Source: a virus (Duplodnaviria > Heunggongvirae > Uroviricota > Caudoviricetes). Taken from it: 48,828 nucleotides of DNA. This document shows, one piece after another, positions 9,535-35,502 of this stretch (positions within the stretch are counted from its first letter, which is position 1; every line of letters begins with the position of its first letter). The notes beneath the pieces are model-generated. The model saw only the letters and a list, made by a program, of their open reading frames with translations. It made no database searches and was not told where the DNA came from. Both the position numbers and the translations under genes were made by a program. The DNA lies in the IMG/VR virus record IMGVR_UViG_3300045988_154803. One strand, written 5' to 3'.

Positions 9535-9652
9535 ACCACGATATGTGGTATTAAAACCACATATTGTGAGTTTTTCAATGGGCGAAACAAAAAATAACCT
9601 TCTATTTGTGGTCCACCTCTCGTCTTACCATGTGAAAACCACTAAATGTGGT
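9535..9652. promoter_or_regulatory. Immunity operator/promoter region: three ACCAC-N5-GTGGT-type palindromes
   Basis: ACCACGATATGTGGT (9535-9549), ACCACATATTGTGAG (9556-9570), ACCACTAAATGTGGT (9638-9652). Confidence 0.6.
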
Positions 9653-9689: not shown

Positions 9690-10346
9690 ATGAAAAGCAA
9701 CGACGAGAACATCAAGAAAGAAATAGGTCTGCGCATTCAGACTCTACGGAAACAATCCGGCATGACTGCCGGAGATCTCCAGCAAGTCACTGGAATAGGC
9801 TTAAGCACCTTGCAGAACTATGAGGCCGGATTAAGACAACCATCTATACCTGCCATCAAGAAAATCGCGCACGCCCTGAAAGCATCAGCGCCTTATATCG
9901 CGTGCTTAACAGATAACCCGTTCCCACCCCAGAATACTAACGCTCCTGTTATTCCTGGGCTTGTAGCTATAAAAAATGACATAGCATCGCACGCCGGAGA
10001 AAAGCCAGTGCTGGCGATAGAACAGGAGATTCTACGAAGCAAGAACATCAACCCATCGTCTCTGTCAGTTCTCCAGAGCAACGATGAGTTAATGTCACCA
10101 ACAATATCCCCAGGCTCCCAAGTCCTGATTAATACAGACGATACAGAGATTCATGAGGGGATCTATGCCCTTGAAGACAGAAATGGCCCGGTTGTTTTGA
10201 GGCACTGTAGAGTCATACCGGGTGACAATGCTGTTATGCTGTCAACCGAAAGGGATGCTGAAATGAACACTAAGCATCTGAATAACGAGGAATTTAAGCG
10301 TTATAAAGTTCTGGGCCGCGTAGTTAGTGTTGTCAACTGGTTATGA
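9690..10346 (+). CDS. CI-like phage repressor (XRE HTH + S24/LexA-like C-terminal domain)
   Basis: N-terminal IGLRIQTLRKQSGMTAGDLQQVTGIGLSTLQNYEAG; C-terminal domain alignable to S24 fold. Confidence 0.8.
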   Translation: MKSNDENIKKEIGLRIQTLRKQSGMTAGDLQQVTGIGLSTLQNYEAGLRQPSIPAIKKIAHALKASAPYIACLTDNPFPPQNTNAPVIPGLVAIKNDIASHAGEKPVLAIEQEILRSKNINPSSLSVLQSNDELMSPTISPGSQVLINTDDTEIHEGIYALEDRNGPVVLRHCRVIPGDNAVMLSTERDAEMNTKHLNNEEFKRYKVLGRVVSVVNWL

Positions 10347-10438
10347 TACACAGCACGGCGAAAGCCGTGCATTTCTACGCTCAAAAAAACCACGCTTTGT
10401 GGTTTTGACAACATGTGAAAGTATAAAAGAGGCTACGC

Positions 10439-12129: not shown

Positions 12130-12153
12130 ATAAAAAAGCCCCCGAAGGGGCCT
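12130..12153. terminator. Hairpin terminator (U-run on minus strand, A-run on plus)
   Basis: gcccccgaaggggc stem-loop flanked by A6 on plus strand. Confidence 0.5.
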
Positions 12154-12725
12154 AATCGCTACTTGCTGCTAATGTTTATCGTCACATTCAGAGCGTTATC
12201 AGTAATCTTCCAACCCTCCCCATGTGGCGTAAACAAAGCTCCAGTAACAACGATAAAAATACACATACAGTATTTTTTCATTGTATGGCCCTTACAGGCC
12301 GTTTCACGGCATCCCCACCGACGAAAACAACGCGAGAGCAAGCACGGCTGCTTGTGCTTGCATGTACGGCAACGGAGAATCCTCCCCTAAAGTCGGTGCC
12401 CGGGTGCGAATCGGCGGGAAGGTCCACAGGTATTTTACGATTATTTTAAGATTAGTAATAGGAAAGAAATTAAACGAAAAAACTCGTTTATTTTCACAAA
12501 ATCAGTAACCTACCCACAATCTGTGAGTTTGCAGGCACAACAAGAACCACAATTTTTTGAAGCATAATAGTGGACTATTATTACCTTTTGGGTAAAATTA
12601 ACTTGCTGCTTGTGCTTGCGTGGTTGTTTATACAACAACGTAATGCTGAAAGGACCGCGAATCCGATCAGCACGAAAGAACCGTCCTCAATAGGGCGGTT
12701 TTTTTGTTTCTGCCTACCAATAAAC

Positions 12726-12738
12726 CCACGCTATGTGG
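12726..12738. promoter_or_regulatory. Fourth CCAC-N5-GTGG operator-like palindrome
   Basis: CCACGCTATGTGG abutting candidate -35 TTGTCT. Confidence 0.5.
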
Positions 12739-12773
12739 TTGTCTCTGTTAAAATCCCGCCGTATTGACATGAA

Positions 12774-12873
12774 TGCGCCATTGGTGGACACTTTCCGAGC
12801 CGTAGCAAAATCTACGGCCGGGATTGGAACCCCGATAATCATCATGGCGCATACCGCGTTAGCGGTTTTTTTA
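12774..12873 (+). ncRNA. Candidate small RNA (~100 nt) ending at intrinsic terminator
   Basis: Candidate promoter TTGTCT-N17-TATTGA; internal hairpin ccgtagcaaaatctacgg; terminator ccgc-gtta-gcgg + T7 at 12854-12872. Confidence 0.3.
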
Positions 12874-13037
12874 TGCGTAAAGCACTGCTACACCCAAATT
12901 ATGGTGGGGCGTGCGGGGGAGTCGTAAGACTCGCCGGATTCCATGGTGACCGGTAGTTCCAACCCTGTACGTCTCACCACCCAATGATTGGAACCAGACG
13001 GTGGTGAGTATCCTTAACCTTTAAGGGAACTATCACC

Positions 13038-13229
13038 ATGACAAACTTACCCCATGACTATTACGTCAACCTCGTAAAGATCCTTCTCAAGAAAGCCTCA
13101 TACGCCGATAAACTCCGCCTGGCTGAAATCATCGAGCGCGAAGCTATGCGCATCGCCAGCAACGATAACGCTGTTTCTGACGCAAAAATCTCCCTCGTAA
13201 CCAAAGTAGTTATGGGAGGTACAAAATGA
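13038..13229 (+). CDS. Small protein upstream of antirepressor
   Basis: 63-aa ORF with stop/start overlap (ATGA) to antirepressor. Confidence 0.4.
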   Translation: MTNLPHDYYVNLVKILLKKASYADKLRLAEIIEREAMRIASNDNAVSDAKISLVTKVVMGGTK

Positions 13230-14368
13230 AAACGCTTCCGACCGTTAACACCCTACAGCCTATCCTGCATAACCAGATCCCCGTTATCACTAGTGAACTT
13301 CTGGCGCAGTTATACGGAACAAAAATCAAAAACATTTCTGATAACTTTCTGAACAACACGACGCGATTCATAGCCGGAAAGCATTACTTTAAAATTGAAA
13401 AAAACGAATTACGCGAGTTCAAGAACAGACCTGAAACAATCGGGTTAGTTGGTAAAAATGCCCGCTCCCTAATTCTCTGGACCGAACACGGAGCAGCCCG
13501 TCACGCCAAAATGCTCGAAACCGATCAGGCTTGGGATGTGTTCGAAAAACTGGAAGACTGCTATTTCAACCAGAACGCACAAACGGCCGCGACCGTAACC
13601 GTCTCACCAAACAATGCTCGTGAGGTTGTCGATACGCTCAACGCCAAACCGATGTTTTACATTAAAGTGTGCAACAACGAGCCACTCACAACCTCAGCCG
13701 ATGTTGCCCAGGCATTCAGCACCACAAACAATTCCATCGTTATGGCCATCGATGCGTTACGCATTCCTCGCACAGCTGCGGCGCGTCATTTCTTTAAAGA
13801 GCAACGACCGTTGGAAGGAAGCGACCGCGAAATAACAATCTATCGCATGACAAAAGACGGATTTACCTTGCTCATGGAAAGTATCGACGGTCCAGGCGTG
13901 AAGGATATCAAGCTGGCCTACATTGAAGCCTTTAACGCTATCAGCAGCGTGTTAAAAACACAGTACGAGCGCGATCTGGCTAAACGACTGTACCAGGAAA
14001 AAACGATTATCCGCGCGGCAACAGAGCATAATCGGCTATTAACGGAACCGAACTACAGGAAGGAACTAATCAAGGAGTTTGACAAGGCAACAGGGAAAAC
14101 CAAAGCGGCGCTAAGTCTGCCAGCAATGACTCAGGAAAATGTGATATCAGCCTTACTTCTTGATCTGCTCAGAAACGCCAGAGCACTTATCAGCTTTGAC
14201 GAAAACCTGAATCCTCAGCTCAAGCTACTACCACCGACAGGCAAAGTAGTCGACCAGGCTGATCACAACAGCATACTCAGCGTACTGGATGCAAACCTGC
14301 CAGCCAGGACACTACAGGATCTGATAAAAACATGTGCTGATAAGCTGGCACAGAAAAGCAGACCATAA
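13226..14368 (+). CDS. ant: Antirepressor-like protein (ORF6N/KilA-N-type N-terminal domain + Rha-like domain)
   Basis: N-terminal IPVITSELLAQLYGTKIKNISDNFLNNTTRFIAGKHYF; central PLTTSADVAQAFSTTNNSIVMAIDAL. Confidence 0.7.
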   Translation: MKTLPTVNTLQPILHNQIPVITSELLAQLYGTKIKNISDNFLNNTTRFIAGKHYFKIEKNELREFKNRPETIGLVGKNARSLILWTEHGAARHAKMLETDQAWDVFEKLEDCYFNQNAQTAATVTVSPNNAREVVDTLNAKPMFYIKVCNNEPLTTSADVAQAFSTTNNSIVMAIDALRIPRTAAARHFFKEQRPLEGSDREITIYRMTKDGFTLLMESIDGPGVKDIKLAYIEAFNAISSVLKTQYERDLAKRLYQEKTIIRAATEHNRLLTEPNYRKELIKEFDKATGKTKAALSLPAMTQENVISALLLDLLRNARALISFDENLNPQLKLLPPTGKVVDQADHNSILSVLDANLPARTLQDLIKTCADKLAQKSRP

Positions 14369-14600
14369 CTACAAGGGGCTACGGCCCCTTACTCTTTTCT
14401 CTCTTATCAACACCAGAGACTTTCTGAAAATCCTTTCGAATAGCGTCAGCGTCACGCGCCAAGCCCATACTCGAACGTGTCGCCATATGACGAAAATGAT
14501 CAACTGCCGGAAACAAAGAAATAATGGACCCAATAGCTTGCAGCAAACTCGCTTTTCTACGCATCATAATTCCACCATAACCGATAACCACCCTTCAGAC

Positions 14601-14627
14601 ACACCCCCCCTCCCCCCATACAGGGTG
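14601..14627. repeat. Homopolymeric tract C7-T-C6 (G7-A-G7 on minus strand)
   Basis: acaccccccctccccccatacag read directly. Confidence 0.9.
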
Positions 14628-15103
14628 CCCTTTACCGGAGTTCCGGCCCCTTCTCAAAAGCATCAAAAAAAGCTCGAGATCGAGTACCGGAACTCATGCC
14701 ACCAGATAGCTCCACATCGTTTCCAATGCTTCGCCGCCGTGTGCGCCCTGTGGCCCACAATCATGCCATTGGTCGTCTGATATACCTTCTTCTGCTCATA
14801 GAGCACAGGCGAGTTGTCGCACTCCTGCCTTTCTCAGACTCGACTTAGTTTAGATCGCTGTTCCTGGCTTGCGTCAGCACACTTTCCCCTTGTACGCATA
14901 CCCGCGCGCAACTTCGCCCAAAAACACCGAACCCAACGAAGTGGCAAAGACAACGACGCGAGCGTGAGTCTGAAATGGGCACCAGTAAAAAAGGGGTTGC
15001 AGGCGCAAAAAGATTTGATTATCTTTAGACGCAAGAAAGCCGCCCCAATCAAGAGGTGTCTTTTTAAATCCAGCCTACCAAGCAAGATTTAAATTTCAGA
15101 CTG

Positions 15104-15130
15104 AAAACCGCCCGGCAAGGCGGTTTTTGT
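15104..15130. terminator. Bidirectional hairpin terminator
   Basis: ccgcc-cggcaa-ggcgg with A-run before and T5 after. Confidence 0.55.
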
Positions 15131-15176: not shown

Positions 15177-15449
15177 TCATTTGATCCCTTGTTCCAATTC
15201 TGCCGACACTTTAACCTTTTCCCATACAAGGGTTTGCAGCCTTAACAGAATCGCATCTTTATCAAGGTGTGAAAGATCCTTAACCATATCGTCAAACGAC
15301 AGAACGCGAATGGCCATCTCAATGACCCTCGGCGGCTCCCCCTTCTCATATCGCTTATATGTAGCCAACGATATCCCAAACTCTTCGGCTGCTCGCTCCT
15401 GCGTCCAGTTCATCCCACGACGCCATAATTTCAATTCGTAACCCGTCAT
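15177..15449 (-). CDS. XRE-family HTH transcriptional regulator
   Basis: LKLWRRGMNWTQERAAEEFGISLATYKRYEKG. Confidence 0.6.
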   Translation of the reverse strand: MTGYELKLWRRGMNWTQERAAEEFGISLATYKRYEKGEPPRVIEMAIRVLSFDDMVKDLSHLDKDAILLRLQTLVWEKVKVSAELEQGIK

Positions 15450-15550: not shown

Positions 15551-15976
15551 ATGAGTTCATCTGCTTTTGTCACCGTGGTCACTGGTGTAAGTGTTTTTGT
15601 TCTAGGCCAACTCATCGTCAAAGGAGCTATTGAGCCTTACATTTCATTCAGGGAACAACTAGGGAAAATATCCAATCTGTTATTATGTAACCAAGCAAAA
15701 ATAGTGAATCCTGGCTCGAACTTAAAGCCAGAAATCATTCATGATCTAAAAGATTCCGCAGCACAGTTAATGGCGAAATATTCCACTTTACCTTTCTATA
15801 TCAAAAAGTTACATATCGGCTTTCGTCTTGTTCCATCAGCCACCGAGATTCTTGGGGCAGCTCAAAATTTGAACTATATAGCGTCAATACATGAAGGTAA
15901 GACTGGGGAGAATCCATCTAAGCATCTCGAAGAGATTGGCCATATGCTCAAAATACCAACTACCTATTCAAGCTAA
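15551..15976 (+). CDS. Membrane-anchored hypothetical protein
   Basis: 141 aa; N-terminal hydrophobic helix AFVTVVTGVSVFVLGQLIV; divergent from HTH regulator. Confidence 0.45.
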   Translation: MSSSAFVTVVTGVSVFVLGQLIVKGAIEPYISFREQLGKISNLLLCNQAKIVNPGSNLKPEIIHDLKDSAAQLMAKYSTLPFYIKKLHIGFRLVPSATEILGAAQNLNYIASIHEGKTGENPSKHLEEIGHMLKIPTTYSS

Positions 15977-16623: not shown

Positions 16624-16923
16624 TCAGATGTTAAACGCTATTCGTTTTCCTGTGGGAAGCTCAACATCCAGGCTTAATTTGCCTCCCATAGCTTCAACGT
16701 AACGCTTTAATGTCGCCAGCTTTAAATCATTTCCGCGCTGCTCCAGCTTTGTTACTGCTGGCTGGCTTATACCCATCGCCTCAGCAACCTGTTTTTGTGA
16801 TAACTGGAGTTCTTCACGCATCATCTGCAAGCCGACCTCAAGAATCATCTCATCTGCCATTTCTTTAATTCGCGCCTGGCTTTCCGGTGAACGGCTGGCA
16901 ATCGCCTCATCTAATGTTCTCAT
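16624..16923 (-). CDS. higA: HigA-like XRE HTH antitoxin
   Basis: QKQVAEAMGISQPAVTKLE HTH; immediately downstream of and overlapping toxin gene. Confidence 0.65.
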   Translation of the reverse strand: MRTLDEAIASRSPESQARIKEMADEMILEVGLQMMREELQLSQKQVAEAMGISQPAVTKLEQRGNDLKLATLKRYVEAMGGKLSLDVELPTGKRIAFNI

Positions 16924-17276
16924 TACTTGCTCTCCAGTGTGTTCAGATGTGCTGCAAACTCATCCTCAGCTATACGCACCAGTTTTTCATAAAACCGCTT
17001 ATCGTTACTTTTGTCTCCTGCACAAAGAACGATGGCCCGGCGAATCGGATCGAACGCATAAAAGGCTCTTATCGGACGGCCAGAAAACTGAACGCGAAGC
17101 TCTTTCATATTTTTGTACCGAGAACCTTTTACGGTATCGGCATATGGCCTGGGTAACTCAGGTCCGTAAACCTGTAGCTTTTTCAAATCAGCCAAAACCT
17201 TTTCCTGAAGAGCGTCTTCTTGCTCATTTAGCCAGTCGTCAAATCGCTGGCTAAAAAGTACCGTCCACATGCTCAA
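16923..17276 (-). CDS. higB: HigB-like RelE/ParE-superfamily toxin (Gp49-like)
   Basis: 117 aa; toxin-first arrangement with HTH antitoxin; sequence pattern recalled from Gp49/HigB family. Confidence 0.65.
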   Translation of the reverse strand: MSMWTVLFSQRFDDWLNEQEDALQEKVLADLKKLQVYGPELPRPYADTVKGSRYKNMKELRVQFSGRPIRAFYAFDPIRRAIVLCAGDKSNDKRFYEKLVRIAEDEFAAHLNTLESK

Positions 17277-18732: not shown

Positions 18733-19713
18733 TTAATGTTGGAGTGATTTCCAGGTCTTTCTTAGCCTGTTATAACGCTGCTCAACGAGGGATCGTAAAT
18801 ATGCAAGGTCAGCACCTGGATACATGCCATCAGCAAATTCCTGGCTAACCTCTCTAGTGATTTGATGACGAAGTTCGGCCTCTCCCTTTTCCTGAACAAG
18901 ACGCGCAGCTCTCTCCGCTGCTTTCTGTTTTGCCTTTATCTCTCTGGCCGTCTTCCTCTGACGCCATACATTCTCCATCTGCTCCTGAATAACAATACGC
19001 TTATAATCAGCCTCCGTTATCGCTTTTTTAAGCCGTTCGCTATTCTTCGCATTGAAGTAATTAAGTTTCTGGCTAACCGCACGTCTCCATGCTTGTTCAG
19101 TAATACCAACGATTTCCAGCAGTTGATCACGAATCTCTATTTTCGCTGGCCAATACTGTTTATTCACCCGATCCCAGCGACGTTCATAATCAATAAAACC
19201 TAACGCTTTCAGTTGCGACAACGCCCTTGTACAGCGCGTTATAGACTTGTTCCCAGCTTCGGATACGGTAGACAGGCCGCAAAAATCAGCCAACGCCTCA
19301 GCACTGGCCAGAACCCGCTTAGAAATGATGTTTACATGGTGCAAAATCGCAGCAATCACAGCATTAATCGCCCGACGACGATGCTCGTTTATCCGGCGTT
19401 TCCGCTCTGACGGTTGATTAACGTAGAACGCAACCTCACACGTAAGATCACGACCATTAATGCGCTGTAAAGCATCAGATAACACCAGCGGCAGCTTGTG
19501 CGTATGGTGCTTTGGAGGCTGGAACTCCGGCGACAAATTACAAACGTAAGCTGAACGTAGAGACGGCATTGGTCTATCCATATGTTCGCTCTTGCGTCCA
19601 CGGAAAACCAACGTATAATGGGAGTTGTCGAGGCGCCCATGGATTGTTTTTGTTGGTTTTCCGTGGATGTCGCAAGAAGCCCGCAGATTTATCTGCGGGC
19701 TTTTTGTTTCCAT
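18733..19713 (-). CDS. repA: IncFII-type RepA replication initiator (RepA1-like); true start possibly internal
   Basis: RRRAINAVI...GLSTVSEAGNKSITRCTRALSQLKALGFIDY aligns by eye to R1/R100 RepA1 block RRRAIDALL...GLATESAAGKLSITRATRALTFLSELGLITY (recalled). Confidence 0.8.
   Translation of the reverse strand: METKSPQINLRASCDIHGKPTKTIHGRLDNSHYTLVFRGRKSEHMDRPMPSLRSAYVCNLSPEFQPPKHHTHKLPLVLSDALQRINGRDLTCEVAFYVNQPSERKRRINEHRRRAINAVIAAILHHVNIISKRVLASAEALADFCGLSTVSEAGNKSITRCTRALSQLKALGFIDYERRWDRVNKQYWPAKIEIRDQLLEIVGITEQAWRRAVSQKLNYFNAKNSERLKKAITEADYKRIVIQEQMENVWRQRKTAREIKAKQKAAERAARLVQEKGEAELRHQITREVSQEFADGMYPGADLAYLRSLVEQRYNRLRKTWKSLQH
19679..19710 (+). terminator. Plus-strand intrinsic terminator antisense to repA 5' region (candidate CopA-like RNA 3' end)
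   Basis: gcccgcag-atttat-ctgcgggc followed by TTTTTGTTT. Confidence 0.4.
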
Positions 19714-19894
19714 ATCTGGTCATTTTCCAACCAGACACCCACAATCATAACCACGTTACGTGGTTTTCAGAGAACTCTACCACAACACTTTCGGTCATGC
19801 ACGAAGTCTCTCACTGATCGAACGATAATCCACCAGTAAAAGGATCTAAATTGGATCTCGTTTTGCGAGCATCATACTACTGGCCTAACTCCAG

Positions 19895-35161: not shown

Positions 35162-35502
35162 ATCGGCATTCCTCTGTTAGTATTAACAGTGAGAGTTATT
35201 TCCAATACACCAACATTATCTGATACTTCATCAATAATATAATTTTTACCGTTGATTTTCATTGACTGGTCTTTGACAGGGAGAACAGGAAAATCTTTTC
35301 TTGAAACAAATAATATTATTTGCCCCTGATTTATTCCCTCTGCAAACTCAGCATATGAGCGTTTATTCCGCTCATGAATAAGGTCTGTATCAATAACGGC
35401 AAGGATATCCTTGCCGTCTATGTTATATGTATCGGCAAACTCTTTTTCATTGAGGAATATTGCAGAAATATCTTGCGCTATAACCTCTTTGAAGGAGTTC
35501 AT
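35158..35502 (-). CDS. Putative head-tail joining protein
   Basis: 114-aa ORF; position. Confidence 0.35.
   Translation of the reverse strand: MNSFKEVIAQDISAIFLNEKEFADTYNIDGKDILAVIDTDLIHERNKRSYAEFAEGINQGQIILFVSRKDFPVLPVKDQSMKINGKNYIIDEVSDNVGVLEITLTVNTNRGMPI

Follow-up and report, generated by a model that had tools for sequence, protein, structure and literature searches.

Two overlapping genes on a phage-plasmid

The operon considered here lies in a window of 48,828 nucleotides (nt), the whole stretch of viral DNA that was analysed (IMG/VR record IMGVR_UViG_3300045988_154803, Caudoviricetes), and comprises two genes, orf63 (13038–13229) and ant (13226–14368), both with ATG starts and both on the plus strand, as are all features below that have an orientation and for which no minus strand is indicated. 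The first cistron, of 63 amino acids (aa), occupies the slot that icd has in phage P1; the second, of 380 aa, has an ORF6N head followed by a Rha domain and a lineage-specific C-terminal part. At their junction (GGTACAAAATGAAAACG) the ant ATG (13226–13228) lies over the orf63 TGA (13227–13229), giving an ATGA overlap at 13226–13229. An earlier note on this DNA had described the pair as an antirepressor operon, and the coordinates, sizes and overlap that it gave are exactly those of the sequence and the list of open reading frames (ORFs). The primary switch, however, is a layer of RNA upstream of the two genes that the note overlooked.

The window is an Escherichia coli phage-plasmid of ~48.8 kb, because the same region is 99.9–100% identical in circular plasmids of ~48–51 kb from E. 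coli, Escherichia sp. and E. albertii, and because an annotated relative carries repA, parA, a P2-like contractile tail, head and lysis genes and a higBA pair. The identity to the region in Yersinia phage vB_YpM_39 is 98.9%.

Leader RNAs and their target sites

The operon promoter (12764–12792) has a −35 TTGACA (12764–12769), a 17-nt spacer and a −10 GACACT (12787–12792), with a predicted start at about 12799. It aligns with the isrK promoter of Gifsy-1, the −35 hexamer being conserved, and the Rfam isrK match begins at 12799. The first predicted product of the leader is an IsrK-type RNA (12799–12872; RF01394, 72.5 bits versus a cut-off of 50) that bears two decoy sites, a1 (UUGGAAC, 12824–12830) in a hairpin loop and b1 (UCAUCAUG), and that ends, according to a terminator scan, in an intrinsic terminator of its own with a stem at 12853–12866 followed by a run of seven U residues. 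It is followed by a C4-type antisense RNA (12897–12984; RF01695, 84.3 bits versus a cut-off of 45, model positions 1–87 of 87), the fold of which, a long closing stem and two hairpins at −44.3 kcal/mol, leaves two segments unpaired. These segments are b' (CAUGGUGA, 12942–12949) and a' (GUUCCAA, 12956–12962). Decoy a1 is the exact complement of a', and b1 pairs with b' at 8/8 positions including one G-U.

Downstream of C4 lie the two targets: a2 (UUGGAAC, 12988–12994), a perfect 7/7 complement of a', and b2 (UCACCAUG, 13033–13040), a perfect 8-nt complement of b' that overlaps the orf63 AUG. Minimum-free-energy folds obtained with ViennaRNA, both of 12985–13070 and of the full leader, further predict a local hairpin (13000–13038) that would sequester that AUG together with the orf63 Shine-Dalgarno (SD) sequence AAGGGA (13023–13028).

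Eleven loci were compared: that of the window, Gifsy-1, P1 and eight found via the orf63 protein, the last being on seven IMG/VR viral contigs and one Yersinia similis contig. Five a' heptamers occur among them, GUUCCAA, ACGCCAA, GUUCGAA, AGGCUAA and, in P1, CUGUCAA, and in all 11 both a1 and a2 are perfect 7/7 complements of the a' of their own locus. The b' octamers vary too, with b2 pairing at 8/8 positions (at most one G-U) and b1 at 6–8 of the 8 throughout. That such three-way change has recurred independently argues strongly for a functional antisense pairing in which the sites define specificity types, much as they do between P1 and P7. The placement of b2 over the start codon is that of the E. 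coli phage-plasmid group; in P1, Gifsy-1 and two further loci (L009 and L023) b2 stops 11–16 nt before the AUG, on the SD or next to it. Where orf63 loci are more distant, the RNA preceding the gene is matched by sRNA-Xcc1 (RF02221) and has the same three-way shape, its loop and linker being complementary to upstream sites and to the orf63 ribosome-binding site.

Two side observations concern these RNAs. In Rfam sRNA-Xcc1 stands outside the C4 clan, and here it behaves as a C4-class antisense RNA with flanking targets; one Yersinia-type locus (L020) has C4 and sRNA-Xcc1 matches in tandem (its positions 2647–2729 and 2878–2963) upstream of orf63. At loci of the L011 type (proteins P0002, P0004 and P0008) an in-frame AUG in the b' loop of C4 lengthens orf63 to 95 aa. 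The extension is the translated 3' half of C4, scores 26.1 bits against Pfam Phage_ASH (PF10554, cut-off 26) and bears the name 'ash family protein'; part of the Phage_ASH family may be translated C4/CI-type RNA rather than protein.

The junction between orf63 and ant

Single 4-nt gene overlaps are frequent in bacterial genomes, but all 18 further loci with an intact orf63 homologue (L005–L022) retain the ATGA junction, irrespective of the gene family that comes next, and its conservation is therefore beyond chance. In addition, the ant SD, GGGAGG (13214–13219), is predicted to be paired with orf63 codons ~51–55 in a hairpin at the 3' end of orf63 (13188–13220). This hairpin is predicted in all the loci folded (n = 11); over nine loci 91% of cells are paired, versus 44–74% in slid controls, and one compensatory pair is found. 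It fits coupling by ribosome unmasking, though as evidence it is modest since the stretch also codes for protein. The inference in the earlier note that the overlap implies coupled translation thus gains support from the conserved junction and the predicted masking of the SD. The operon is closed by an intrinsic terminator (14373–14390; AAGGGGC-UACG-GCCCCUU and then a U-rich tail), bidirectional in the terminator scan.

The orf63 protein

Is the first cistron more than a device for coupling? A leader cistron without function of its own, with Ant as sole effector, would have a precedent in orf45 of Gifsy-1, which acts through coupling and is conserved as nucleotides and not as protein (PMC4825925), and in the Shiga toxin (Stx) phage phi24B the same leader drives ant without orf63, which is therefore not needed for the regulation itself. 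The record of selection on orf63 points the other way. Its homologues, in 34 clusters from Escherichia, Salmonella, Klebsiella, Hafnia, Yersinia and Erwinia, are nearly all of exactly 63 aa. Among the first 19 residues 14 are invariant and two more nearly so, with many synonymous differences in the DNA, and against distant loci the ratio of nonsynonymous to synonymous substitution (dN/dS) is 0.07–0.16 (Nei-Gojobori, synonymous sites near saturation). This is purifying selection, and so orf63 is a real protein rather than a mere coupling leader. Its AlphaFold model, of three helices, is confident, with a predicted local distance difference test (pLDDT) score of 82. Further, orf63 lies between leader and ant in L010, a lambdoid phage that matches phi24B at 98% identity across roi and the 3' part of ant, and being present there and absent from phi24B it is a discrete, facultative module, as expected of a gene with its own function. 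We accordingly think it rather unlikely that orf63 merely couples.

What the protein is related to is another matter. PHROGs places it in phrog_7886, of unknown function, and its model gave no match at E ≤ 0.001 when compared by Foldseek with BFVD. When 1.84 billion cluster representatives were searched exhaustively with a profile, only four clusters came up, with no remote link to a named family, and tblastn at E ≤ 1 against 50,697 INPHARED phage records yielded only three near-identical Yersinia phages, with no N15 or P1 icd-like gene detectably related. On these comparisons orf63 is a narrow orphan family. Homology to Icd was entertained and rejected: BLASTP gave no alignment, and the NCBIfam model NF033153 (phage_ICD_like) hits P1 Icd at 3.4e-14 and does not hit orf63.

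The gene after orf63 always belongs to an antirepressor-type family (ORF6N, Rha, P22_AR_N, P22_AR_C or ANT), though the type varies. Some loci have ORF6N, Rha and a C-terminal part as in the window (380–393 aa; longer in the truncated locus L015), others ORF6N with P22_AR_C (228 aa) or with another C-terminal part (199 aa), and yet others Rha with a C-terminal part (256 and 204 aa) or P22_AR_N (184 and 245 aa).

The Ant protein

That Ant combines an ORF6N-like N-terminus with a Rha-like segment, as the earlier note proposed, is borne out by Pfam. ORF6N (PF10543) covers aa 12–96 (E 1.1e-20; 74.1 bits versus a cut-off of 27.8) and Phage_pRha (PF09669) aa 155–239 (E 2.7e-12; 47.5 bits versus 29.9), and the last ~140 aa (about 250–380) have no Pfam family match. 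In PHROGs several anti-repressor families match the N-terminal part, and Rha-like regulator families the middle. Over aa 1–116 Ant is 87% identical to AnrP of Gifsy-1, ORF6N being present in both while the C-terminal parts differ, and the nucleotides of this region are 90–93% identical to ant genes of Gifsy-1 and Stx phages. Full-length homologues with ORF6N and Rha are abundant on contigs of 45–50 kb and number in the hundreds. A search with the C-terminal part found four proteins only, and comparison of the Ant sequence with PDB chains gave no match at E ≤ 1.

In phage-plasmids with a Rha domain 97–100% identical, the N-terminal 130 residues are only 64–97% identical, the divergence being mostly in the central ORF6N segment. 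Since the head diverges where Rha is near-identical, it is a recombination hot spot. When the central segment (13310–13480, Ant aa ~28–85) is set beside L011–L018, at least five very different variants are apparent in otherwise near-identical phage-plasmids; some carry insertions of 13–23 aa, and they are shuffled without regard to the C4 a/b specificity type.

An internal start at Met143, which would give an isoform like Ant2 of P1 and corresponds to a 238-aa call by the Prokaryotic Genome Annotation Pipeline (PGAP), has no SD upstream (AACGCCAAACCGATG) and is unsupported. On NZ_AP025749 and many RefSeq plasmids that pipeline nonetheless provides only the 238-aa 'Rha family transcriptional regulator' from Met143. 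On NZ_AP025749 (L003, 5403–6545) the 380-aa ORF is intact, yet its 5' third, which encodes ORF6N, has no coding sequence in the PLSDB gene table, itself an incomplete table.

The CI-like repressor and its putative operators

The presumed target of Ant is a CI-like repressor of 218 aa (9690–10346), with an HTH_3 domain and a diverged C-terminal domain, encoded divergently from the early operon. The C-terminal domain scores 18.5 bits with Pfam Peptidase_S24, below the cut-off of 23.3, the protein lacks the G-x-S-M motif, and in a by-eye alignment Leu and Arg take the places expected for the catalytic Ser and Lys. Neither LexA nor lambda CI could be aligned significantly; with UmuD also compared, only the helix-turn-helix (HTH) region matches, and the matches in PDB are likewise over the HTH region only. 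There is no LexA box (CTGT-N8-ACAG) near the regulatory regions of the window. One is at 35174, inside structural genes; as chance could account for this sole match (37 of 100 shuffles), SOS control of ant was rejected. The earlier note had made the importance of Ant depend on a non-cleavable repressor. The findings are consistent with that, with the repressor leaning towards non-cleavability and a need for an antirepressor, though consistency is as far as a sub-threshold S24 match, a missing motif and the lack of a nearby LexA box take the matter. With a repressor having no recognizable S24 signature, and with no LexA box nearby, a part for Ant as the switch for induction or anti-immunity is plausible; the antirepressor role assigned to it rests on homology to AnrP.

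Exact palindromes of the form ACCAC-N5-GTGGT occur at 9535–9549, 9638–9652, 10389–10403 and 19750–19764, with ~0.05 expected by chance. Two are in the cI/cro intergenic region and one is just downstream of cI, ahead of a 124-aa ORF. The fourth, ~170 bp upstream of repA (~18734–19582, minus strand), suggests that the CI-like repressor also touches control of plasmid replication. A fifth, operator-like palindrome (CCCACGCTATGTGGT, 12725–12739), one mismatch from this form, is a putative CI site ~25 bp upstream of the −35 hexamer of the operon promoter. Every phage-plasmid locus has it at this position, including those with unrelated sequence on its far side, and the lambdoid versions lack it. 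Between the two, a possible extended −10 (TGTTAAAAT, 12746–12754), read by eye and not called by the promoter scan, could speculatively belong to an upstream promoter overlapped by the operator, like P51a of P1. The promoter pair would then resemble the tandem operator-controlled and constitutive promoters of P1.

A probable RNA gate on coupled translation

We consider it likely that the locus is an RNA-gated switch in which orf63 and ant are translated together and Ant counteracts CI. The gate and the coupling are held more confidently than the step between Ant and CI. From the promoter at 12764–12792 the leader would yield in turn the IsrK-like RNA, with the a1 and b1 decoys and its own terminator, and C4. 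In a lysogen, transcription from 12799 would give mostly terminated IsrK-like RNA, with C4 coming from read-through transcripts that reach orf63 and ant and from which it is probably processed, as by RNase P in P1. Pairing of the C4 a' and b' with a2 and b2 would, together with the local hairpin, block initiation at orf63, which would normally go untranslated; without ribosomes on orf63 the ant SD would stay paired. Because that SD is in the orf63 hairpin and the genes overlap by ATGA, Ant would be made only if ribosomes read orf63. By analogy with P1, untranslated orf63 may also allow Rho-dependent termination before ant. More decoy relative to C4, in the form of the a1 and b1 sites of the short IsrK-like RNA, would open orf63 and with it coupled translation of ant, as in Gifsy-1, and entry into a cell without matching C4 would likewise open translation. 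Ant may then relieve repression by the CI-like protein, presumably by binding it, or otherwise activate the lytic operons, with orf63 co-expressed as a separate conserved protein that presumably has a role of its own.

Several considerations weigh against this scheme. The element is known here from its sequence alone. The hairpin masking the ant SD depends on one compensatory pair, and that within a coding region. In the window the frame of orf45 has a homologous AUG at 12901 and a stop after 8 codons (ending at 12927), and no ORF ends at the 13038 ATGA; with this frame closed the published details of IsrK and orf45 cannot apply unchanged. Nor are protein functions transferable from P1, as neither orf63 nor Ant resembles P1 Icd or Ant. 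An AlphaFold2 model of Ant, built from a 25-sequence alignment, is unusable (pLDDT 38.7). The only domains that can be assigned to Ant, ORF6N and Rha, are counted among the DNA-binding modules of phage regulators.

The last point leads to a different final step, with the RNA gate the same: Ant as a DNA-binding transcription factor, activator or competitor, acting via ORF6N and Rha. The PGAP name for the protein, 'Rha family transcriptional regulator', is in line with this, and in Gifsy-1 expression of AnrP raises transcription of the antQ operon and induces the prophage, while direct binding of AnrP to a repressor was not demonstrated (PMC4825925). Evidence in favour of protein partners comes from a locus (L019) where the ORF6N head is absent and identity is 53% for the C-terminal part of Ant and 55% for the C-terminal domain of CI, as would befit a protein–protein specificity pair. 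This is a single data point, which hints that the Rha and C-terminal part is the element-specific half. Moreover, the slot after orf63 is filled in other loci by proteins with P22_AR_N or P22_AR_C, and the Ant protein of P22 is a protein-binding antirepressor. On balance action as a transcription factor seems improbable, and an antirepressor role for Ant plausible.

Neighbouring features

The neighbours of orf63 and ant are plasmid-maintenance genes: parA, a ryfA-like RNA and higBA. Such company, and the P1 annotation of Icd and KilA-type proteins as toxic to the host, might be taken to mean that the pair is a toxin-like, abortive-infection or exclusion module outside the immunity circuit, if the ORFs are not there by chance. 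Both ORFs, however, have strong family matches, hundreds of full-length homologues and a constant C4/IsrK context, and no toxin–antitoxin family match was found in Pfam, PHROGs or NCBIfam (PADLOC was not searched), so that we regard such readings as very improbable.

The ryfA match (RF00126, 138.5 bits, full length) is at 12132–12427 on the minus strand, flanked by the par genes and the ant operon, and is kept in related phage-plasmid loci. We take ryfA loci to encode a type I toxin–antitoxin pair, in which case the copy in the window may be a plasmid-addiction module. The 540-nt 'hypothetical protein' over ryfA in phage record OR545053 is probably spurious. A HigB/HigA-like toxin–antitoxin pair (16624–17276, minus strand) comprises a 117-aa RelE/ParE-type protein and a 99-aa HTH protein, and a tRNA gene (Rfam, 67 bits) is at 959–1031 on the minus strand.

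Beyond the operon, between a minus-strand ORF (14379–14567) and a gene for a 90-aa HTH protein, ~500 nt (14600–15120) have no convincing ORF or Rfam match; this stretch has a C-rich tract (CACACCCCCCCTCCCCCC) at its start and a terminator-like hairpin (~15107–15127) at its end. The 90-aa protein is RstR/Xre-like, and its gene (15177–15449, minus strand) is divergent from that of a 141-aa phrog_7512 protein of unknown function (15551–15976, plus strand). The HTH gene lies ~800 bp downstream of ant; it might form another immunity or regulatory switch, with its product as an alternative to the CI-like protein as the target of Ant.

Possible cross-talk and wider relevance

Base for base, the C4/IsrK leader of the window is the same as that of the lambdoid Stx-like phage L010. 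From this identity cross-regulation is predicted, with the C4 and IsrK of either element silencing or unlocking the ant of the other in trans. The ORF6N head has been exchanged with the ant alleles of Gifsy and Stx phages and is hypervariable among otherwise identical phage-plasmids. A bolder joint reading would make the locus a node of cross-talk between phage-plasmids and lambdoid prophages, with a two-headed antirepressor, the ORF6N head of which would act on co-resident lambdoid prophages and the Rha and C-terminal part on the CI of its own element, while orf63 would be a new host-directed effector, a functional analogue of the division inhibitor Icd. Taken together this is speculative, and we would be surprised if all of it held.

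Irrespective of that, three 'hypothetical' genes and an unannotated leader are provided with a regulatory role. They belong to a common family of E. coli and Salmonella phage-plasmids of ~45–50 kb, represented by several dozen PLSDB plasmids and by hundreds of clusters of protein homologues. RefSeq annotation is misleading here, with Ant cut to a 238-aa 'Rha family regulator' and 'Ash family' ORFs called through C4 RNA. Invariably accompanied by C4-class antisense RNAs and antirepressor genes, orf63 is a candidate for a new early function of phages, and one that is tractable. There is free reassortment between leader specificity types and the Ant head, and the catalogue of a/b specificities permits testable predictions of heteroimmunity and cross-induction between phage-plasmids and prophages of the Stx or Gifsy type.

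Relation to known systems

Silencing by a small phage RNA of an antirepressor or lytic function in the lysogen is a theme of P22 immI (sar-ant), N15 (CA RNA-icd-antA) and P4 (CI RNA). The CHARACTERISED systems compared with the window were P1, Gifsy-1 and the Stx phage phi24B.

In the curated annotation of P1 the order is a1, b1, c4, a2, b2, icd, ant1, and the two genes share 4 nt. To the target sites that annotation attributes "repression of icd ant translation"; it describes icd as "apparently required for expression of ant" and Ant as an antagonist of C1. The immI regions of P1 and P7 share with the window a promoter, a1/b1, C4 RNA, a2/b2 at the ribosome-binding region of the first cistron, ATGA and an antirepressor. 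They too belong to plasmid prophages, have a/b specificity oligomers that vary among relatives and have a repressor operator-like site just upstream of the promoter region. The likeness to an icd-ant operon drawn in the earlier note stands, and extends to the C4/IsrK leader, the order of parts and b2 at the start of the first cistron, though not to the sequences of the proteins. Unlike Icd, with which orf63 shares no homology, and unlike P1 Ant1, an ANT/KilAC protein (PF03374, 1.2e-30), the window has orf63 and an Ant with ORF6N and Rha only (BLASTP E ≥ 5 against Ant1). Its b2 covers the AUG whereas that of P1 is at the SD, its repressor is a lambda CI-like HTH protein and not C1, and no evidence for an internal start of the P1 Ant2 type was found in its ant.

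The resemblance to isrK-orf45(STnc1160)-anrP of Gifsy-1 extends to the nucleotides of the leader, with the −35 hexamer, IsrK RNA and C4-like RNA all homologous, the same part order of isrK, C4 match and anrP, and an AUGA junction between the upstream ORF and the antirepressor gene. That operon is transcribed yet translationally silent, and short IsrK in trans opens it (Hershko-Shalev et al. 2016, PMC4825925). Synthesis of AnrP needs the upstream ORF, the stop of which overlaps the anrP AUG, and IsrK has been likened to P4 seqA/CI (PMC4825925). In Gifsy-1, however, orf45 overlaps the C4-like RNA, whereas the window instead has a separate conserved 63-aa gene between leader and ant; AnrP is of 187 aa without a Rha domain, in contrast to the 380 aa with Rha of the window Ant; and its locus is downstream of lambdoid antQ rather than on a phage-plasmid.

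In phi24B the isrK and C4 leader is followed by an ORF6N Ant (92–93% nucleotide identity to the window over ~305 nt) and then by Rha-family roi. There Ant (ORF6N and P22_AR_C) and Roi (Rha and ANT) are the products of separate genes and orf63 is absent, whereas the window encodes ORF6N and Rha as a single fused polypeptide of 380 aa, the C-terminal part of which differs.

Judged by sequence, then, orf63 and ant are the coding half of an anti-immunity operon of the P1 immI and Gifsy-1 isrK type. The mechanism is one already known, repeating P1 immI and Gifsy-1 IsrK with RNAs that are curated Rfam families. What the window adds to these systems is an orphan protein, orf63, in the company of C4-class RNAs, the reassortment of leader and head, and a leader common to a phage-plasmid and a lambdoid phage.

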